DNA of 64,000 nt from Escherichia phage FP43, in the sequence record MN648445; one strand, given 5' to 3'. This document shows positions 16,785-58,639 of the stretch, in pieces. A model generated the notes under the pieces. That model made no database searches and was not told the DNA's origin. It worked only from the letters and a program-made list of their open reading frames with translations. Each line of letters begins with the position of its first letter. Position 1 is the stretch's first letter. The position numbers were made by a program, and so were the translations under genes.

Positions 16785-16983
16785 CATCTCTAACTACTTA
16801 GAAGAACCTTTTGACGAAGCAATCCCTTATTTGGTAAAACTGTTGGGTCGTGAATTTAAAATTAATTTTGACATCGACCCTTTGAACCCACATGACGTGT
16901 CATTTTCGATAAATGGGACTCCAGTTGAGTACGAGTTCTGTATTGAAGAGGATGGACGTTTTTATTTTAATTTAATGAGATAA
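16774..16983 (+). CDS. small hypothetical protein
   Basis: ATG 16774 overlapping end of gene 55. Confidence 0.4.
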
Positions 16984-16984
16984 T

Positions 16985-17308
16985 ATGACTACCGAGATTA
17001 TTGAAAATAAAGAAGCAGAAGATGCAGTAGCTAAAATGCTACAAGAAATCCAAAAGAAAAATGAAGCTGAAGCACGTAAAAAATCCGAAAAGATTCTTAA
17101 AAAGAATCGTTTTGAACTAAACCGTCTTTATGCACATGCTCAAGAAGCAGCAATTCAAAACAACTTCGAAGCTTACGAATATGCTATTAAGAAATCTCGG
17201 GATATTCTACGACAACCATATAATGACAAGTTAATTAAAATCCAGTGGATTACTACTCGTCAGGCTATTGAGGACATCATTAATGGCGCTAGTTCAAACA
17301 AAGTTTAA
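16985..17308 (+). CDS. hypothetical protein
   Basis: 107-aa ORF. Confidence 0.45.
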   Translation: MTTEIIENKEAEDAVAKMLQEIQKKNEAEARKKSEKILKKNRFELNRLYAHAQEAAIQNNFEAYEYAIKKSRDILRQPYNDKLIKIQWITTRQAIEDIINGASSNKV

Positions 17309-17489
17309 ACGTCTGAAGCTGAACGCAGGGTTCTCCCTTAAATTGGGAGGTCCTCTTTGTGTTAAAATTTCTGAAAAGGAATATCACGACGGTTCTATTA
17401 CAGAAATTTGTCCGCCTATTGTAAAGGCAGACCCAAAACAACTCGTGTGGGTCGATTCATTTCAAGTTAAGAAATGGTGGAAACGATGA
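17283..17489 (+). CDS. small hypothetical protein
   Basis: ATG 17283 inside ORF 17268..17489. Confidence 0.35.
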   Translation: MALVQTKFKRLKLNAGFSLKLGGPLCVKISEKEYHDGSITEICPPIVKADPKQLVWVDSFQVKKWWKR

Positions 17490-17528
17490 GAGAAATTGAT
17501 TTAGGCATTTTCTGAGAGGTGCTTATGC

Positions 17529-17702
17529 ATGACGAACATCCCGACTTCTGAAAATTTCGATAAAATCCGTAAAGGCAAAGCAGAAAGAATGAGACGTTTT
17601 AAAGAGTCTTATGATAAAGCTAAAGCCGAAGGAACTATTACATACAAGCCCATTCGATTTAAAAGTTCAAATGAGCCTCTGTACGGTGTACTATGTGGAT
17701 AG
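17529..17702 (+). CDS. small hypothetical protein (57 aa, below ORF-track cutoff)
   Basis: ATG 17529 after GAGAGG RBS; stop immediately before TTCG terminator. Confidence 0.3.
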   Translation: MTNIPTSENFDKIRKGKAERMRRFKESYDKAKAEGTITYKPIRFKSSNEPLYGVLCG

Positions 17703-17727
17703 GAACTCTTCGGAGTTCCTTTTTTTG
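17702..17727 (+). terminator. intrinsic terminator (TTCG tetraloop)
   Basis: GGAACTC TTCG GAGTTCC then TTTTTTT. Confidence 0.7.
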
Positions 17728-17772
17728 CTTTATAAACGGATGATAAAATGAATTAACTAATGAGGAAATAAT

Positions 17773-18792
17773 ATGAAAATTTTGCACTTAGGCGACTTCC
17801 ATATCGGAGTCAAACAAGACGACCCATGGGTTCAAGATATTCAACGTGATGGTATTCGACAAGCAATTGAATACTCTAAGAAACACGGGATTAAAACTTG
17901 GATTCAGTACGGTGATTGGTTTGACGTCCGTAAAGCAATAACACATCGTACAATGGAATTCAATCGTGAAATCGTTGATATGATTTCTAAAGCAGGCATT
18001 CACGTTCATGTCACGATAGGAAACCATGACATGGCGTTTAAGAATACAATAACACCTAACACTGTTTCTGAATTGTTAACTCAATTTGAAAACTTTACTA
18101 TTTACGAGCATCCAACTACTGTAGATTTTGACGGATGTCTGATTGATATCGTTCCATGGATGTGTGAAGAAAATACAGGTGAAATCTTAGAGCACATCAA
18201 GACTTCTTCTGCTGCGTATTGTGTTGGTCACTGGGAACTGAACGGTTTTTATTTCTATAAAGGAATGAAGTCCCATGGGCTTGAACCTGATTTCTTAAAG
18301 ACCTATAAACAAGTCTGGTCCGGCCACTTCCACACAATCTCTGAAGCTGCTAACGTCAAATATATTGGGACACCATGGACCCTTACTGCAGGTGACGAGA
18401 ACGACCCACGTGGATTCTGGGTATTCGACACTGATGTTGAACGTATGGAATTTATTCCTAATGAAACAACATGGCATCGACGAATCACTTATCCGTTTAA
18501 AGGCAAAATCAATTATTCTGATTATACTAATCTAGCCGTACGTGTTATAGTATCAGAAATTGATTCAGAGTTGACTAAATTTGAATCTGAACTTGAAAAA
18601 GTAGTTCACTCTCTTCGTATGGTTTCTAAAGTTGATAACAGTGTTGAATCTGATGACGACCAGGAAATCGAGATTAAATCACTTCAAGATATCATTAAAG
18701 AATATATTGACGCGATTCCAGATATCTCAGACGAAGACAGAGAAGCGCTGGTCAAATATTCCAACGAACTTTATATTGAGGCAACACAATGA
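17773..18792 (+). CDS. 47: recombination endonuclease subunit gp47 (Mre11-like)
   Basis: 339 aa; phosphoesterase motifs (LGDFHIG, GNHD); strong match to remembered T4 gp47. Confidence 0.95.
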   Translation: MKILHLGDFHIGVKQDDPWVQDIQRDGIRQAIEYSKKHGIKTWIQYGDWFDVRKAITHRTMEFNREIVDMISKAGIHVHVTIGNHDMAFKNTITPNTVSELLTQFENFTIYEHPTTVDFDGCLIDIVPWMCEENTGEILEHIKTSSAAYCVGHWELNGFYFYKGMKSHGLEPDFLKTYKQVWSGHFHTISEAANVKYIGTPWTLTAGDENDPRGFWVFDTDVERMEFIPNETTWHRRITYPFKGKINYSDYTNLAVRVIVSEIDSELTKFESELEKVVHSLRMVSKVDNSVESDDDQEIEIKSLQDIIKEYIDAIPDISDEDREALVKYSNELYIEATQ

Positions 18793-19046
18793 CTTTAGAT
18801 GAATTTAACAATGCTGGGCTAGGGCTTGAAGTTGAAATAGACGTTAAAGATGATGATGGATTCGAGAACACTATCAAGTATTGGATTGAGCCATTACGCG
18901 TTGAAGGCAATGAAGTTAAAGCCGTTCATGTCTGTACCGACTGGGCTATTGAATTTAGCTTTAATATAATGGACAACGATACTCCTAGCTCTATTCTTAA
19001 AATGGCTGAAGCGTGTATTGAGGATGCGTATAATGACGAAGACTGA
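18789..19046 (+). CDS. hypothetical acidic protein
   Basis: 85-aa ORF, ATGA overlap with gene 47. Confidence 0.45.
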   Translation: MTLDEFNNAGLGLEVEIDVKDDDGFENTIKYWIEPLRVEGNEVKAVHVCTDWAIEFSFNIMDNDTPSSILKMAEACIEDAYNDED

Positions 19047-27165: not shown

Positions 27166-27801
27166 ATGAAAACTACACCAATCACTATCGCTATTGACGC
27201 AATCGTAAAACAAGCTTCATCTCTTGCCACTATGGCTAAAGTAATTAGTCAAAACTCTGCCCGATATAATGCTATTCTTGAAACTCTTCGTCGCCCTGGA
27301 CTGAGTAATTATGAAAGCCGAGTAATTATTACAGGTGTTGGTAAGAACGCTAATATCGCAACTAAAGCTTCCGAGACTTTTGCTTCACTAGGTATTCCTA
27401 GCATGTATTTGAACACCGGGCATTATTCTCATGGCGACGCAGGATTTATTGCACCTAATGATGTATTAGTTCACATCAGTCGTTCTGGTAAGACTGAAGA
27501 AATGATAGGTGTTGCTAAACATCTTCGTATGATTCGTCCTCAGGTTAAACAGATTCTGTTACATTGTAACCCTGACATTCCGCAAGAATACGAAGCTCTT
27601 TTTGATTATACGTTCTGTACAGGCATCGCGGTAGAGGTTGATGAGAATTCTCTGGCTCCGACCATGTCCACTACATTGTTGTTAGCGCTTATCGATACGT
27701 TTGCTATCAACCTTTCGTCTGAACGTGGATTTACCTCTAATGACTTCCTTAAGTTCCACCCTGGTGGTGCACTAGGTGCCATGTTACGAGGCGAACAATG
27801 A
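27166..27801 (+). CDS. SIS-domain sugar-phosphate isomerase (arabinose-5-phosphate isomerase-like)
   Basis: 211 aa; ITGVGKNANIATK and SRSGKTEE SIS motifs; C-terminal FHPGGALGAML typical of KdsD/GutQ-type isomerases. Confidence 0.6.
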   Translation: MKTTPITIAIDAIVKQASSLATMAKVISQNSARYNAILETLRRPGLSNYESRVIITGVGKNANIATKASETFASLGIPSMYLNTGHYSHGDAGFIAPNDVLVHISRSGKTEEMIGVAKHLRMIRPQVKQILLHCNPDIPQEYEALFDYTFCTGIAVEVDENSLAPTMSTTLLLALIDTFAINLSSERGFTSNDFLKFHPGGALGAMLRGEQ

Positions 27802-27941
27802 AAGCAATAACAATAGGACTTTTACTATTGATGCTTGTCATGACTATCTACTGGAGCTTAACGGCTCCAGTAATGATTCCGACTCTTATAATCGGATGGA
27901 TTATGATTGGACTACAAGCAAAGTATGAATGCTTTAACTAG
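27798..27941 (+). CDS. small hydrophobic membrane peptide (47 aa), possibly Imm-like
   Basis: ATGA overlap with upstream gene; almost entirely hydrophobic. Confidence 0.3.
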   Translation: MKAITIGLLLLMLVMTIYWSLTAPVMIPTLIIGWIMIGLQAKYECFN

Positions 27942-27982
27942 AATAGTGTACGATACACCTACTTACCAATGAGGACCACAAC

Positions 27983-29668
27983 ATGAAAAAAGCTGTTATT
28001 CTTGGTGCTGGACTGGCAACTCGTTTGTATCCAATAACGCACCATATTCCTAAGGTGCTTGTTAACTATAAACAAGACACTATTCTGAGCAATTTGTATA
28101 CAATTTATTCTGACCTTGGCGCAGATGAAATTATTGTAGTAGTTCATTCAAAATTTGCTGAAACTGTTCGAGCTTATTGCGAGCAAGAAGGGTTCAATGT
28201 GACTATTCGTACAGTTGATGAAGCGTATGGTTCTGCTTATGCTCTTGCTAAATTATACAAAGATTTAGATGGCCATAACGTAATTGTTAACTGGTGTGAT
28301 ATTATTCCTGACTTTGGTTCATGGTCTTGGAATGTTAACGCAATCTATGTTAAGGGTGATGAATGTCGATATAATTTCGATGGTGAAAATATCACTAACG
28401 TAGGTTCAACAGGTGGTAATGTTGTAGGAATTTATCAGTTCAAAGACTGGGAATTCTACATGGGTTCTACTGATGAGGAAATTCACGAATACTGCAAAGG
28501 TCGTGATTTCGTAGAATTCCTTTACGGCAGTGCATTCAATAAATCAGAGCTTATGAATCTAATTGATTTAGGTGATATGCCTAAACTTGAAAAGGCTCAT
28601 GAAGTTCGTGAACTGAATCGTAGTTTTAATGCAGTTGAAATTGGCGAAGAAACTGTAACTAAATTCGCGTTAACCGAACAAGGTCGAGCTCTTCAAAAAG
28701 ATGAGATTTCATGGTATTTGAAAGTGAAATCAGATTCAGTTCCTCAGTTAGTTTCGGTAAATGAAAATAATTTTGAAATGGAACGTATTAAAGGTAAGCC
28801 GGCATTTGAATATATTAAATCCAAATCAAGTCTTGCTCGTCCACAAATTGTTGATGCAATTTTAGATGCACTGAAATTCAGCACGGACACTTATTTTGTA
28901 AGTCCTGAAACTGTTCGCCGTGATTTCACTAAAGAGTTCTATACGAAAGTTATTGATCGTTGTGAAAGCATTCAGCCATTGATTGATTCATTTGGTAAAA
29001 TCACACATGTGAACTACACTAAGATTGGACGTCTGAAGCCAATGTTGAAACAAGCTTTAGAACATCTTATTCGTTATCATAACCGTTCTCAGGGACAGTA
29101 CTCTGTTATTCATGGTGACCCGAACTTCAGTAATACTATGATTACCGATAACGGCGAAGTCAAGTTTATCGACCCTCGTGGATATTTTGGTGAAACCAAG
29201 ATTTACGGGCCAAAATTGTATGATGAAGCTAAAGTGCTTTATGCTGTTTCAGGTTATGATGAATTCAATGCTAATCCGACCTGGGGTCAGTTTACTATTG
29301 ATGAAACAACTTGTAATGTGACTATTAACATCAATCCATTAGTTTACAAATATGGAAAGATGAGTTCGTTTAACGAGTATCATCATTTGGCAGTAGCAAT
29401 TATCTGGATTGCATTAGGTGGTTATTTCAAGAATAATCCACTTAAAGCGGTTGCCGCATATTATAAAGGTATGGAACTTCTGACTAAGCAATTACGTAAC
29501 ATGGGCCGTGTACTTCAAGACGGCTCTATTAGTTATGACGTAGCAGAACCTGTAACGGCTACTCTGATTACAAAAAATCCTGGTAAATGGGTACTAACTG
29601 ATAAAGAAACTGGTGTTTCCTATCGTCCAATCGGCGGCGATATCACTCATCAATGGGAACGAATCTAA
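27983..29668 (+). CDS. bifunctional sugar-1-phosphate nucleotidyltransferase / sugar kinase (fusion)
   Basis: N-term MKKAVILGAGLATRLYPITHHIPKVLV (G-x-G-T-R-L nucleotidyltransferase signature); C-term HGDPNFSNTMI...IDPRG (APH/choline-kinase-like catalytic motifs). Confidence 0.6.
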   Translation: MKKAVILGAGLATRLYPITHHIPKVLVNYKQDTILSNLYTIYSDLGADEIIVVVHSKFAETVRAYCEQEGFNVTIRTVDEAYGSAYALAKLYKDLDGHNVIVNWCDIIPDFGSWSWNVNAIYVKGDECRYNFDGENITNVGSTGGNVVGIYQFKDWEFYMGSTDEEIHEYCKGRDFVEFLYGSAFNKSELMNLIDLGDMPKLEKAHEVRELNRSFNAVEIGEETVTKFALTEQGRALQKDEISWYLKVKSDSVPQLVSVNENNFEMERIKGKPAFEYIKSKSSLARPQIVDAILDALKFSTDTYFVSPETVRRDFTKEFYTKVIDRCESIQPLIDSFGKITHVNYTKIGRLKPMLKQALEHLIRYHNRSQGQYSVIHGDPNFSNTMITDNGEVKFIDPRGYFGETKIYGPKLYDEAKVLYAVSGYDEFNANPTWGQFTIDETTCNVTININPLVYKYGKMSSFNEYHHLAVAIIWIALGGYFKNNPLKAVAAYYKGMELLTKQLRNMGRVLQDGSISYDVAEPVTATLITKNPGKWVLTDKETGVSYRPIGGDITHQWERI

Positions 29669-30054
29669 TGCACCGTGTAGAAAACATGCTTAATCTTTGT
29701 TTTGATGTCGATGATTGTATAACAGAGTGGAATAACAATCGTGATTACGTGAACTTCAAACCAGACGTCGAAATGGTGTCTGCCATTAATGCCCTGTATG
29801 ATGCAGGGCATACCATAACGCTTTACACTGCCCGTGGTATGAAGTCGGTAGGTCCTGGTCGTATAGCAATTGACATTCTCCCAAGTCTGATTCAGAACTT
29901 GGAAAACATTGGTTTGAAGTACCATAATTTGCTAACACATAAACCAGTATATGATTGGATTATCGACGACAAAGCTATGCGTCCTGACGAATTCAAAGCT
30001 CTTATGAATAAAGGCGAATTCGAAACATTTAAATCATATAAACCAAATCTATAA
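29668..30054 (+). CDS. HAD-superfamily phosphatase
   Basis: FDVDDCIT motif I (DxDx[TV]); TAATG overlap with upstream kinase gene. Confidence 0.5.
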   Translation: MHRVENMLNLCFDVDDCITEWNNNRDYVNFKPDVEMVSAINALYDAGHTITLYTARGMKSVGPGRIAIDILPSLIQNLENIGLKYHNLLTHKPVYDWIIDDKAMRPDEFKALMNKGEFETFKSYKPNL

Positions 30055-40279: not shown

Positions 40280-41302
40280 ATGGCTGAATGGATAGATAAT
40301 GAATTTGCTTATCGTGCGTTTTCTCACCTCCCTCGTTTTAGACAAATCAATAATTCAAGCACATTTAAATTAACATTTCGATGCCCAGTTTGTGGCGACT
40401 CTCAGACAGATGCAATGAAAGCCCGCGGATGGTATTACGGCGGTACTCCAGGTAATGTGCATTGCTATAACTGTCAATACCACAATACAATTTCCGGATA
40501 CTTAAAAGAGTATGATGAAGAGCTTTATCGCGAATATCTAATGGAAGTTCGTAAAGAAAAAGCTAGAATGGAACCGAAGATTGAAAAGGTTCCTGAACAT
40601 AAACCAGAACCGGAGAAAAAGACTATAAATTCTTTGCCGTCTTGTTCTCGTCTGGACAAACTGCCTGAAGAGCATCCTATTGTGAAATATGTTAAGTCTC
40701 GGTGTATTCCTAAAGAATCGTGGAATAGATTATGGTTCACATTAGAATGGCCTAAATTGGTCAACAAGATTCAACCTGGTACGTATAAGAAAGAGATTCC
40801 CGAGCCACGTTTAGTGATTCCTATTTTTAATAAAGATGGGAAGGCCGAGTCATTCCAAGGACGTGCACTTCGTAAAGATGCTCCTCAGAAATATATCACT
40901 ATTAAAGCGTTTGAGTCTGCAACAAAAATTTATGGTGTTGAACGTGTTAAGGAAGGAGACGTCTGGGTAATGGAAGGCCCTATTGATAGTTTATTCATAC
41001 CCAATGCAATCGCTATTACAGGCGGCTCGATAGATTTAGATGTGGTACCATTTAAAGAACGTCGGGTATGGGTAATGGATAATGAACCTAGGCATCCGGA
41101 TACTATAGCTCGCATGAAGCGATTAGTTGATGCAGGCGAACGTGTCATGTTCTGGGATCGAGCTCCATGGAGTTCAAAGGATGTGAATGATATGGTAATG
41201 AAAGAAAATGCAACACCACAAGAAATTTTAGAATATATGAAACAGAATATTTCAAGTGGGTTGCATGCTAAAATGAGATTATCTCGTTATTCGAAGATTT
41301 AA
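40280..41302 (+). CDS. 61: DNA primase gp61
   Basis: 340 aa; zinc-binding CPVCGDS...CYNC and TOPRIM region; matches remembered T4 gp61. Confidence 0.95.
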   Translation: MAEWIDNEFAYRAFSHLPRFRQINNSSTFKLTFRCPVCGDSQTDAMKARGWYYGGTPGNVHCYNCQYHNTISGYLKEYDEELYREYLMEVRKEKARMEPKIEKVPEHKPEPEKKTINSLPSCSRLDKLPEEHPIVKYVKSRCIPKESWNRLWFTLEWPKLVNKIQPGTYKKEIPEPRLVIPIFNKDGKAESFQGRALRKDAPQKYITIKAFESATKIYGVERVKEGDVWVMEGPIDSLFIPNAIAITGGSIDLDVVPFKERRVWVMDNEPRHPDTIARMKRLVDAGERVMFWDRAPWSSKDVNDMVMKENATPQEILEYMKQNISSGLHAKMRLSRYSKI

Positions 41303-41496
41303 ACAAGCCCTATAATAGCAAAGGCCAAATCAACTACAGTATCCAATGGAACAGAAGGAACTATAATACCATGGGCAACTAACAATGGTGCAATCCCGAA
41401 GTTCCATGAAATAATGCCACCTACAACTATTGCAGCGATAGCAGTTTTCTTTTTATTGCCTTTAATAGCGTTGATTAACGATGGAAGTTTAAACAT
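41299..41496 (-). CDS. small membrane protein on the minus strand (convergent with gene 61)
   Basis: 65 aa; strong SD AAGGAGAT 3 nt before ATG (reverse complement of 41497-41508); two hydrophobic helices. Confidence 0.55.
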   Translation of the reverse strand: MFKLPSLINAIKGNKKKTAIAAIVVGGIISWNFGIAPLLVAHGIIVPSVPLDTVVDLAFAIIGLV

Positions 41497-41584
41497 AATA
41501 TCTCCTTAGTTACCTATTATTTATTACGCTTTATAAAATTAATGTTAGAATTAACTCTCTTATACTGAATTGAAAGGAAAAATA

Positions 41585-42106
41585 ATGGCACACTTTAACG
41601 AATGTTCACAACTTATTTCTGGTGTTGATAAAGCAGAAGAAGCTTATTTTAATGCTCTGATTCACGAAGATAAAGACCCACTGCAGGTAATGCTTGATAT
41701 GCAGAAATCTTTACAGGTTCGTCTGGCAAATGACAAGCCTGAACATAACAAACATCCTGATGAATTGGCTACTGCTGGTGATGTTGTTGATTGGCTGCGT
41801 AATCAGAAAGATTATATTGATGATGAATTCCGTGAACTGCTGACTTCACTTGGTGGTATGAGCAATGGTGAAAAAGCCGCTAGCAGTGTATGGAAGCCAT
41901 GGAAAGCACAACATGCTGAATATCGAAATCGTCGTATCGATGAACTGTCTCCTGAAGACCAGCTTGAAATTAAATTTGAAATGATTGATATTCTGCATTT
42001 CGTTCTGAACATGTTCCAAGGTCTTGGTCTTTCTGCTGAAGAAATCTTTAAACTTTACTACTTGAAAAACCAACACAACTTTGAACGTCAGGATAATGGT
42101 TACTAA
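41585..42106 (+). CDS. 56: dCTP pyrophosphatase gp56 (MazG-like)
   Basis: MAHFNECSQLISGVDKAEE...; resembles remembered T4 gp56; syntenic next to 61. Confidence 0.8.
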   Translation: MAHFNECSQLISGVDKAEEAYFNALIHEDKDPLQVMLDMQKSLQVRLANDKPEHNKHPDELATAGDVVDWLRNQKDYIDDEFRELLTSLGGMSNGEKAASSVWKPWKAQHAEYRNRRIDELSPEDQLEIKFEMIDILHFVLNMFQGLGLSAEEIFKLYYLKNQHNFERQDNGY

Positions 42107-51887: not shown

Positions 51888-53705
51888 ATGATTAAAAATG
51901 AAATTAAGGTATTGTCAGATGTAGAACATATTAAGAAACGTAGTGGTATGTATATTGGTTCTTCGGCCAAAGAAGCCCACGAGCGTTTTTTGTTTGGTAA
52001 ATATCAACAAGTTGAATATGTTCCTGGTCTGGTTAAATTAATCGATGAGATTATTGACAACTCGGTTGATGAAGCTATTCGTACATCATTTAAGTTTGCA
52101 AATAAAATTGATGTGCAAATTAAAAATAATCAAGTTTCGGTGGAAGATAACGGACGTGGTATTCCTCAAGGTTTAGTTACCGACCAAACAGGTGAACAAA
52201 TTCCTGGGCCTGTAGCAGCCTGGACTATTCCAAAGGCCGGTGGTAACTTTGGTGATGACTCTGAACGCAAGACTGGTGGTATGAACGGCGTCGGGAGTAG
52301 TTTAACTAATATCTTCTCTACGTTGTTTACAGGCATCACGTCAGATGGCGAAAATGAAATCACTGTTAACTGTTCAAACGGAATGGAAAACAAATCATGG
52401 TCTTCTAAGAAATCTAAAGGTAAAGGCACTAAAGTAATCTTCACTCCTGATTTCACTTCATTTGAAGAGCATAATTTATCTCAAATTTATTTAGATATTA
52501 CTTTAGACCGACTTCAAACATTGGCAGTCGTTTATCCTGATATCACGTTCACATTTAATGGTAAAAAGGTTGATGGTAATTTTAAACGATTTGCTAAACA
52601 ATTTGGTGAAGATAATATCATTCAAGAAAATGATAAAGTCTCTATAGCATTCACAACATCACCAGATGGCTTCCGTCATTTAACTTATGTGAATAACATC
52701 CATACTAAAAATGGTGGACATCATGTTGAATGTGTAATGGACGATATCTGCGAACATCTTTTGCCGGGTATTAAAAAGAAATATAAGGGTATTGAAGTCA
52801 CTAAAGCTCGTGTTAAAGAATGTCTCACAATGTTGATGTTTATTAGAGACATGAGCAACATGCGTTTTGATTCTCAGACTAAAGAACGTTTAACGTCAAC
52901 GTATGGTGATATTCGTAATCATATCCAATTAGATGCTAAGAAAATTGCTCAGGCACTTCTTAAAAATGAAGCCTTGATTATGCCTATTGTTGAAGCAGCA
53001 TTAGCTCGTAAATTGGCGGCAGAAAAGGCTGCAGAAACTAAAGCAGCTAAAAAGGCAACTAAAGCTAAGGTTCATAAGCATATTAAAGCTAACCAATGTG
53101 GTAAAGATGCAGATACGACATTGTTTTTAACAGAAGGTGATTCGGCAATTGGATATCTCATTGATGTTCGTGACCGTGAACTACACGGCGGATTCCCGTT
53201 ACGTGGTAAGGTGATGAATAGCTGGGGTATGTCATATGCTGATATGATGAAGAACAAAGAGCTCTTTGATATCTGTGCTATCACAGGTCTTATTCTTGGT
53301 GAAAAGGCAGAGAATACGAACTATCGTAATATTGCAATTATGACCGATGCCGATCATGACGGCCTTGGAAGTATTTATCCTGCTTTGCTTGCTTTCTTTA
53401 GTAATTGGCCTGAATTGTTTGAACAAGGACGTATTCGCTTTGTTAAAACACCTGTAATTATTGCACAAATTGGCAAAACTCAAAAATGGTTTTATACTGT
53501 AGCTGAGTATGAAGAAGTTAAAGATACACTGCCTAAGCATAGTATTCGATACATCAAGGGATTGGGCTCCCTTGAAAAGTCAGAGTATCGTGAAATGATT
53601 CAGAACCCTGTGTACGACGTAGTTAAACTTCCTGAAAATTGGAAAGAACTCTTTGAAATGCTGATGGGTGATGATTCAGAACTTCGTAAAGAATGGATGT
53701 CCTAA
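51888..53705 (+). CDS. 39: DNA topoisomerase II large subunit gp39 (GyrB-like), continuous 605-aa form (T4 39+60 equivalent)
   Basis: MIKNEIKVLSDVEHIKKRSGMYIGS...; ATPase and TOPRIM regions in one frame. Confidence 0.95.
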   Translation: MIKNEIKVLSDVEHIKKRSGMYIGSSAKEAHERFLFGKYQQVEYVPGLVKLIDEIIDNSVDEAIRTSFKFANKIDVQIKNNQVSVEDNGRGIPQGLVTDQTGEQIPGPVAAWTIPKAGGNFGDDSERKTGGMNGVGSSLTNIFSTLFTGITSDGENEITVNCSNGMENKSWSSKKSKGKGTKVIFTPDFTSFEEHNLSQIYLDITLDRLQTLAVVYPDITFTFNGKKVDGNFKRFAKQFGEDNIIQENDKVSIAFTTSPDGFRHLTYVNNIHTKNGGHHVECVMDDICEHLLPGIKKKYKGIEVTKARVKECLTMLMFIRDMSNMRFDSQTKERLTSTYGDIRNHIQLDAKKIAQALLKNEALIMPIVEAALARKLAAEKAAETKAAKKATKAKVHKHIKANQCGKDADTTLFLTEGDSAIGYLIDVRDRELHGGFPLRGKVMNSWGMSYADMMKNKELFDICAITGLILGEKAENTNYRNIAIMTDADHDGLGSIYPALLAFFSNWPELFEQGRIRFVKTPVIIAQIGKTQKWFYTVAEYEEVKDTLPKHSIRYIKGLGSLEKSEYREMIQNPVYDVVKLPENWKELFEMLMGDDSELRKEWMS

Positions 53706-58351: not shown

Positions 58352-58639
58352 ATGATTCATCCATTTGACGTATCAGAAACCAAAATTGCTAATCTTCGTG
58401 GTCATCATAAGTGTAAATCAGTTTATTGTGCTAAATTGGTAAAACATCCTGGTGATGCACACTACGGCTGGTTAGAATGCGACGAAGTTGTTATTGAAAT
58501 CCCGCCGGTAGATGCAGAATATCTTGAAGAAGGAGACCGCATTTATTTTGGTGAACTACACATCAGAGGTATTTATGGTAAAGACGAACTTGGGACTGTT
58601 GAGACTGAAGAATCTTCCGACATTTATCCTGTCGAATGA
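58352..58639 (+). CDS. hypothetical protein
   Basis: ATG 58352 just after TTCG terminator. Confidence 0.4.
   Translation: MIHPFDVSETKIANLRGHHKCKSVYCAKLVKHPGDAHYGWLECDEVVIEIPPVDAEYLEEGDRIYFGELHIRGIYGKDELGTVETEESSDIYPVE

Follow-up and report, generated by a model that had tools for sequence, protein, structure and literature searches.

A 64,000-nucleotide stretch of Escherichia phage FP43 (sequence record MN648445), here called the window, carries a 65-amino-acid (65-aa) open reading frame (ORF) on its minus strand between the genes for primase (gene 61) and dCTPase (gene 56). An earlier note drawn from the sequence had described this small ORF as the only convincing minus-strand gene, ending tail-to-tail with gene 61. 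Both points were borne out. The ORF begins with the ATG at 41494 to 41496 (minus strand), and its stop codon shares a TTAA with that of primase. Among minus-strand ORFs of 50 aa or longer, it alone occupies a gap left by plus-strand ORFs (2% overlap), and in the RefSeq annotation of phage JK45 (98% identical) it is the single one of 89 coding sequences (CDSs) in 50 kb to lie on that strand. The near-perfect Shine-Dalgarno (SD) sequence that had been placed 3 nt before the ATG, and the late-promoter-like box upstream of it, were likewise present, AAGGAGAT and AATAAATA being the reverse complements of 41500 to 41507 and 41518 to 41525, respectively. The locus is laid out as follows.

40280 to 41302, plus strand: primase gene 61 (phrog_47)
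41299 to 41302, both strands: TTAA palindrome formed by the overlapping stop codons of the small ORF (minus) and primase (plus), with no spacer and no terminator
41299 to 41496, minus strand: CDS of the predicted 65-aa small membrane protein, phrog_2024 (MFKLPSLINAIKGNKKKTAIAAIVVGGIISWNFGIAPLLVAHGIIVPSVPLDTVVDLAFAIIGLV), based on the ORF list, the sequence, the phrog_2024 match, and the ratio of nonsynonymous to synonymous substitution rates (dN/dS)
41500 to 41507, minus strand: SD sequence AAGGAGAT, 3 nt before the ATG, read from the sequence
41511 to 41514, minus strand: predicted transcription start, ∼6 nt past the box, giving a ∼15-nt leader with the SD; placed from the box position of −13 to −6 (PMC1524935)
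41518 to 41525, minus strand: AATAAATA, a putative late-promoter box of the T4 type with A at −13, standing 21 nt before the ATG (from the sequence)
41585 onward, plus strand: dCTPase gene 56 (phrog_173), starting with ATG at 41585

The primase-dCTPase region of the window shares 98% identity with phages ATK47, JK45, and APCEc01. The position of the small ORF, converging on primase and diverging from a dCTPase, dam, or MazG-like gene, was conserved in the window, JK45, T4, CJ20, and a20, and also in loci L009 and L022 and in SEA1, Melville, CIP9, KLB31, and CkP1. The 4-nt overlap with the primase CDS recurs in T4, a20, Melville, CIP9, KLB31, CkP1, and L022, spanning at least five genera; the small-ORF unit is set apart from primase by a further ORF or by a spacer in Gaprivervirus, L009, and SEA1.

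Coding evidence and the phrog_2024 family

The length of the ORF is not significant by itself and proves little, because 117 ORFs of 50 aa or more are found on the minus strand of the window. Substitution patterns were assessed by the Nei-Gojobori method for 15 pairs, with the synonymous rate (dS) estimable in 13, and dN/dS in these 13 pairs was 0.10 to 0.47. Synonymous sites were saturated in the remaining two, namely the window compared with L009 (proportion of differing synonymous sites [pS], 0.78; nonsynonymous [pN], 0.16) and L009 compared with L006 (pS, 0.76; pN, 0.35). Between the window and the close relative L012, 11 synonymous and 4 nonsynonymous differences were counted, and the deletions of 3 codons found in the homologs from a20 and OE5505 are in frame. 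Tblastn identified the protein in 692 phage records from Tequatrovirus, Mosigvirus, and Gaprivervirus, T4 included, 685 of them near full length, with a disrupted copy seen in only one. The frame also stays open across several genera at identities down to ∼14 to 25%, with the W-N-P positions kept. Taken together, the ORF is almost certainly a real coding gene.

The protein matched the phrog_2024 hidden Markov model (HMM), which is labeled as unknown function, with an E value of 1.9e−27 (residues 1 to 65 against profile positions 1 to 65 of 65); all 16 of the diverse relatives that were compared matched this profile too. Sixteen Mosigvirus entries, on 217 contigs, already contain an identical protein under the name "hypothetical protein," and homologs are annotated as CDSs in JK45 (KMC32_gp027; YP_010076105.1), a20, and other phages. 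The ORF is thus real and already cataloged, carried as "hypothetical protein" in relatives and belonging to an uncharacterized family. An HMM scan of 1.84 billion representative proteins returned 14 clusters, all consisting of phage peptides of 45 to 70 aa. Divergent members were found in 164 records from Klebsiella, Salmonella, and Citrobacter phages and in a further 116 records from phages of Enterobacter, Kosakonia, Edwardsiella, and other hosts, which may overlap with the 164.

Two paralog types, ∼25 to 31% identical, could be distinguished: type A (65 to 66 aa, MxKL...AIKGNKK) and type B (66 to 74 aa, MGT[V/I/L]FYQIWK...). The window and T4 carry A only, Gaprivervirus carries A then B, L009 carries B then A, and SEA1 carries B only; ESCO47 probably has B then A, as judged from adjacent locus tags. 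The paralog loci lie at 2001 to 2407 in L007, 1501 to 1907 in both L013 and L019, 1805 to 2198 in L009, and 2001 to 2225 in L021. This arrangement hints that the A and B proteins may form a hetero-oligomer or may have diversified.

The T4 homolog is a 66-aa protein, 54% identical to the window protein, encoded at 17738 to 17938 on the plus strand of NC_000866.4 (L002, 3239 to 3439). It has its own box, GATAAATA (17709 to 17716), and an AGGAGG SD, and it occupies an apparently empty 309-bp gap between dam (16846 to 17625) and gene 61 (17935 to 18963). Identity to T4 is higher for primase (74%) and dCTPase (72%), so the small protein has evolved faster than its neighbors. One T4 assembly annotated with Pyrodigal does include the T4 copy. 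The exact T4 protein is on record from raw-read assemblies only and has no NCBI or UniProt accession. A transcriptome and proteome study of T4 counted only features annotated in NC_000866.4 (PMC9697503), and the gene was therefore invisible to it.

The probable late-promoter box

T4 late promoters lack a −35 element and consist of the 8-bp box TATAAATA spanning −13 to −6 (PMC1524935, PMC2988020). Of 50 late sites listed for T4, 32 are perfect; A at −13, present in 9 of the 50, is the commonest natural variant (PMC2988020), and this position is often A or T in T4 relatives (PMC1524935). The early and middle transcripts of T4 share one polarity (PMC2988020), opposite to that of the small ORF. 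Because the gene lies on the strand opposite early and middle transcription, the late box is its only visible promoter. In the window, the minus-strand unit showed neither a sigma-70-type promoter nor an intrinsic terminator, and promoter and terminator scans of L009, L007, and L021 returned nothing convincing. A hairpin (AGGGAG-GAAA-CTCCCT) followed by a T-run was noticed by eye after the ORF in L009.

The box is scarce in the window. AATAAATA occurs twice in the 64 kb, both strands counted, compared with 9.8 copies expected, and 41518 to 41525 is the sole minus-strand copy. The core ATAAATA occurs 7 times against an expectation of 28 ± 5.4, a fourfold depletion, and all four of its plus-strand copies sit 20 to 32 nt upstream of ORF starts. 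Comparison between lineages gave the boxes and distances to the ATG listed below.

Window clade: AATAAATA, 21 to 22 nt
T4: GATAAATA, 21 nt (19 nt in L015, L016, and L029)
T4-clade loci with another upstream context, which aligns with the gene 56-proximal sequence of the window: AATAAATA, 22 nt
Gaprivervirus: CATAAATA, 16 nt
L009 and L022: CATAAATA, 22 and 19 nt, respectively
Kanagawavirus KLB31: CATAAATA, 15 nt
Kanagawavirus CIP9: perfect TATAAATA, 15 nt
Melville, CkP1 (Gelderlandvirus, Karamvirus), and SEA1: (T)ATTAAATA, 14 to 19 nt

A box of the TATAAATA type was present in every homologous locus examined, in flanks that are otherwise not alignable, standing 14 to 22 nt before the first gene of the unit in at least nine unrelated sequence contexts from about six genera. 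In all these lineages the predicted start, ∼6 nt past the box, falls just upstream of a strong SD; most homologous loci have AGGAG or AGGAGG in the corresponding position, CIP9 and KLB31 have GGAGG, and SEA1 has CAGGAGGG. Where paralogs are in tandem, the box stands before the first copy only (Gaprivervirus, A then B; L009, B then A). Three independent lines of evidence, namely the scarcity of the motif, its conservation before the homologous gene, and its restriction to the first of two tandem copies, make it very probable that AATAAATA works as a late promoter of the T4 type and that the small-ORF unit is transcribed late; that this promoter drives the gene is considered highly likely. A family-wide rule, in which T never occurs at −13 and the promoter is deliberately kept weak, was rejected given the perfect TATAAATA of CIP9. 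The lack of T at −13 still holds for the copies in Tequatrovirus, Mosigvirus, and Gaprivervirus.

The earlier note had taken the opposite strand to be the late direction in this genome. It is correct that early and middle transcription never uses this strand, but T4 late transcripts run both ways, and soc, a late gene on the plus strand, lies 650 bp from the small ORF. Its suggestion of a late-expressed membrane protein embedded in the early region stands insofar as it concerns a membrane-protein gene with a late box, the latter supported by the comparative evidence, but not for the specific functions it named. The other late boxes in the window are as follows.

42113, plus strand: TATAAATA, 31 nt before soc
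10002, plus strand: AATAAATA, 29 nt before gene 49 (endonuclease VII)
2163 and 2175 (2163 to 2182), plus strand: tandem TATAAATA and GATAAATA, before the 86-aa secreted-protein ORF at 2203 to 2463

The ORF at 2203 to 2463 (phrog_2243, unknown function) has a signal peptide-like N terminus downstream of the tandem boxes and, by sequence, is a probable further case of a late exported small protein encoded inside the early region. Two minus-strand variants, GATAAATA at 53372 to 53379 and CATAAATA at 58570 to 58577, are located within plus-strand genes and are followed by neither an SD nor an ORF; either they are copies that escaped the strong depletion of the motif by chance, or they are late promoters for antisense RNA.

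Predicted anatomy and possible role of the protein

The AlphaFold2 model, built from an alignment of 21 sequences, had a mean predicted local distance difference test (pLDDT) score of 81.6 and contained helices at residues 3 to 11, 15 to 41, and 51 to 61. Hydropathy analysis indicated one clear membrane span at about residues 18 to 41. The segments of the protein were assigned as follows.

41446 to 41496, minus strand: basic N-terminal segment, codons 1 to 17, net charge +5 with no acidic residues, predicted to be cytoplasmic (charge counts)
41374 to 41454, minus strand: single predicted transmembrane (TM) helix, codons 15 to 41, including W31-N32-F33 (41398 to 41406) and P37 (AlphaFold2, hydropathy, and conserved columns)
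41302 to 41358, minus strand: codons 47 to 65, a Pro-rich loop and an amphipathic helix (51 to 61), net charge −2, predicted to be periplasmic (AlphaFold2 and hydropathy)

The protein had previously been read as a two-helix membrane protein. Its membrane character is supported, but AlphaFold2 predicts three helices, of which only that at 15 to 41 is long enough to span the membrane. A hairpin of two TM helices was judged unlikely: the second segment contains two Asp residues, its helix is 11 residues long, and its summed Hessa-scale score (apparent insertion free energy) is +6.5 to +8, with +8 for residues 44 to 62. Apart from these two Asp, residues 47 to 65 are hydrophobic and include no basic residue. 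Hardly any tryptic peptides suited to mass spectrometry are expected from the protein. Since the N terminus is basic and the C terminus acidic or neutral, the positive-inside rule predicts an N-in/C-out orientation, and the N side was more positive than the C side in 35 of 36 family members. The model thus makes it fairly likely that the protein is single pass, N-in/C-out, with ∼24 residues at the periplasmic face.

Across relatives at 14 to 36% identity, the conserved residues are W31, N32, F/Y/L33, P37, G43, P47, hydrophobic residues at 49 (V) and 51 (L), and D/E52. They form a core, WNF-x3-P...G..LP, in which W31-N32-F33 is nearly invariant. The conserved residues are concentrated in the juxtamembrane loop and in the outer half of the TM helix, which therefore suggests a specific contact at the periplasmic leaflet rather than bulk membrane damage.

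Combining these results, it is likely that the small ORF is a genuine gene of PHROG family 2024 forming a one-gene late unit that is reversed within an early replication-gene block. After the onset of replication, RNA polymerase with gp55, gp33, and the gp45 clamp would initiate ∼6 nt downstream of the AATAAATA box (41518 to 41525, minus strand), and the 65-aa product would be translated from a ∼15-nt leader with a strong SD. The product would insert into the inner membrane as a single-pass protein, with residues 1 to 17 in the cytoplasm, the TM helix at 15 to 41, and ∼24 C-terminal residues at the periplasmic face, where it may make a specific contact with itself, with the tandem paralog where one is present, or with another envelope protein. 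As a nonessential accessory protein, it would most likely modulate what happens at the envelope late in infection, acting in lysis timing, in lysis inhibition, or in protecting the envelope; an envelope or lysis-related role is put forward only tentatively. With no terminator before primase, late transcripts would have to run antisense into the 3′ end of gene 61.

Several points weigh against this interpretation. The T4 copy is unannotated in both RefSeq NC_000866.4 and the curated GenBank record AF158101.6. A full-text literature search, which did not cover the published T4 late-promoter list, found no paper on the ORF. The disrupted copy is that of T4_ev240 (L033, 1110 to 1160; LR597657.1), where a deletion of 1 nt in an A-run (AAGAAAC to AAAAAC) truncates the frame after 18 codons; the gene is probably dispensable in the laboratory, the alternative being a homopolymer sequencing error. 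Most homologs do not have the consensus T at −13, and activity is not known to have been reported for the variants with G or C in its place or for the ATTAAATA form, so the promoter may be weak. Support for the topology comes from a single AlphaFold2 model, made for a peptide of 65 residues, together with the positive-inside rule, and the role proposed is no more than a guess from the anatomy.

Alternative explanations differ in what they leave unaccounted for. The ORF could be a chance frame in the spacer between primase and gene 56, or a gene-caller artifact spread by automated annotation; it is missing from the hand-curated T4 records, its length means little among so many minus-strand frames, and annotations in relatives are automated, for example with Pyrodigal. 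Yet the low dN/dS, with synonymous sites saturated between clades, has effectively refuted this view already, and it sits poorly with a frame open across genera with the W-N-P positions conserved, a conserved SD and promoter box, and a single disruption among 692 records, so that its probability is close to nil. Alternatively, the late transcript could act mainly as an antisense RNA to the 3′ end of the primase mRNA, or the unit could insulate the convergent transcription units, with the peptide being secondary. The stops overlapping in TTAA with no predicted terminator would carry the late transcript antisense into gene 61, the overlap recurs in several genera, and antisense late transcripts are cited in T4, for example at gene 32 (PMC2988020, PMC3014915). 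A role in RNA only nonetheless leaves unexplained the in-frame indels, the strong conserved SD, and the residues conserved among relatives with 20 to 30% identity, and the unit does not abut primase in Gaprivervirus, L009, or SEA1. Antisense transcription was not considered the main function because the peptide is under purifying selection, and this explanation is very improbable.

Among protein functions, the earlier note had proposed a holin, antiholin, or exclusion-like protein. This was not supported: no significant similarity of the small ORF to holin, antiholin, Imm, or Spackle families was found in Pfam, NCBIfam, PADLOC, or PHROGs, the C terminus is hydrophobic and acidic, and the neighbors are primase and dCTPase. 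Searches of Pfam, NCBIfam, and PADLOC at E values of ≤10 gave no match except a meaningless restriction enzyme hit (E value, 0.037), a sequence profile search of PDB gave only NqrE (E value, 0.81), Foldseek against BFVD and PDB returned family members or noise, and an Rfam scan of 41000 to 41900 found nothing in the ORF or upstream region. A holin, pinholin, or antiholin gating inner-membrane lesions to time lysis would be small, with a single TM helix and probably late expression, as here; one UniProt entry, the OE5505 homolog, is named "Holin," and 2 of the 16 relatives touch the holin family phrog_11161 at an E value of 0.012. That value is not significant for two of 16 hydrophobic peptides, however, and the label is isolated, the other named members examined being hypothetical or uncharacterized. 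Holins typically carry a charged, usually basic, hydrophilic C-terminal tail, which is missing here. The genes nearby are primase, dCTPase, and soc, with no lysis cassette and no endolysin or spanin association, and the conservation of WNF...P...LP suggests a specific contact rather than pore formation. The T4 lysis set (t, rI, rIII, e, and pseT.3/pseT.2) is complete and t-null phage do not lyse, so a second holin is disfavored. A holin-type function is therefore considered quite improbable.

An envelope exclusion or anti-defense factor, which would block entry of superinfecting phage DNA or mask or neutralize a host membrane-associated defense, its sequence changing rapidly and duplicating as the targets shift, would fit the faster evolution relative to primase and dCTPase, the lineage-specific tandem paralogs that vary in order and presence (A, A+B, B+A, and B), and the restriction of the family to phages (14 clusters among the 1.84 billion representatives). 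A spackle gene and an imm-like gene also lie ∼2 kb away in JK45. Against this, the protein is similar to neither Imm, Spackle, nor any PADLOC entry, known T4 exclusion genes are early, as exclusion demands, and the small ORF appears late, and dN/dS values below 0.5 indicate purifying rather than diversifying selection at the available resolution, making such a factor improbable. T4_Spackle (PF25676) was detected on nearby genes of related loci and not on the small ORF. In JK45 (L001, 1018 to 1266) a gene annotated "immunity to superinfection" stands next to spackle ∼2 kb upstream of primase; we take T4 imm to lie between genes 42 and 43, unlike in JK45.

Roughly a thousand sequenced genomes of T4-like phages, from at least six genera, carry the gene, which has kept its own probable late promoter and encodes a predicted membrane protein without known relatives. 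T4 is the reference organism of this phage group, and a conserved late gene absent from its record escapes transcriptome and proteome studies. It is unlikely, yet worth stating, that T-even phages including T4 hold a late gene that was overlooked through 60 years of T4 genetics owing to its absence from the reference annotation and whose product is a new late-envelope component. Were this true, the product would cross the inner membrane once, carry a conserved motif on its periplasmic side (WNF-x3-P...G..LP.V.L[D/E]), and have a paralog as partner in some lineages, with lysis timing or lysis inhibition, membrane-linked head assembly, and evasion of membrane-sensing host defense as candidate roles. 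Small uncharacterized ORFs are plentiful in T4-type genomes, and it is well established that the early region can contain late promoters, so the finding is unsurprising. It is modest but solid, and its main value lies in a correction to the T4 annotation and in a clear, cheap experimental target.

Neighboring elements and comparison with known systems

The intergenic region between the small ORF and gene 56 is 88 bp and may hold a second promoter, back-to-back with the minus-strand late box.

41527 to 41551, plus strand: MotA-box-like candidate middle promoter for gene 56 (CGCTTTA, 12 nt, TAGAAT), read from the sequence

The first element was likened to a MotA box by what we take to be the MotA-box consensus. 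T4 has a parallel arrangement upstream of gene 56 (TTGCTTA, 13 nt, TATAAT), and a note in the T4 record at the corresponding place describes the oriA primer RNA as the gene 56 transcript. By analogy, the window may have an oriA-like origin 30 bp from the late promoter.

Elsewhere, genes for a phosphoheptose isomerase, a GlmU-like protein, and an arabinose-5-phosphate isomerase are annotated in JK45 at 27257 to 30145 of L024 (about 27170 to 30050 in the window, by offset), just upstream of the DNA polymerase gene in the direction of transcription. Sugar-nucleotide clusters like this one are associated with the arabinosyl-hmC modification of DNA in RB69-like phages.

Within PHROGs, the window ORF is a member of phrog_2024, which lies between primase and dCTPase or dam in Tequatrovirus, Mosigvirus, and Gaprivervirus, and it shares that position and orientation. 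No function has been assigned to the family, neither Pfam nor NCBIfam models it, and the curated T4 gene list lacks a counterpart. In the organization of its expression signals, the small ORF resembles soc and the late transcript of gene 49; in each case the ATG is preceded by an 8-bp box, a short leader rich in A and T, and a strong SD. Those two genes are on the early (plus) strand and can also be reached by read-through from upstream promoters, whereas the small ORF is on the opposite strand and converges on primase with overlapping stop codons.

In size, its single hydrophobic helix, and probable late expression, the 60- to 70-aa small single-TM holins and pinholins of the T7 gp17.5 type are similar, but the small ORF has no charged hydrophilic C-terminal tail, lysis cassette context, or significant HMM or fold match. 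T4-type phages use an unrelated 218-aa holin, T. Imm, Spackle, and RI of T4 are also small phage proteins at the inner membrane or periplasm, with spackle ∼2 kb away. The small ORF has no sequence similarity to any of the three, and Imm and Sp are products of early genes of the opposite strand. Export of Sp and RI relies on signal or SAR sequences, and Imm spans the membrane with two TM helices, compared with the one TM helix predicted here.

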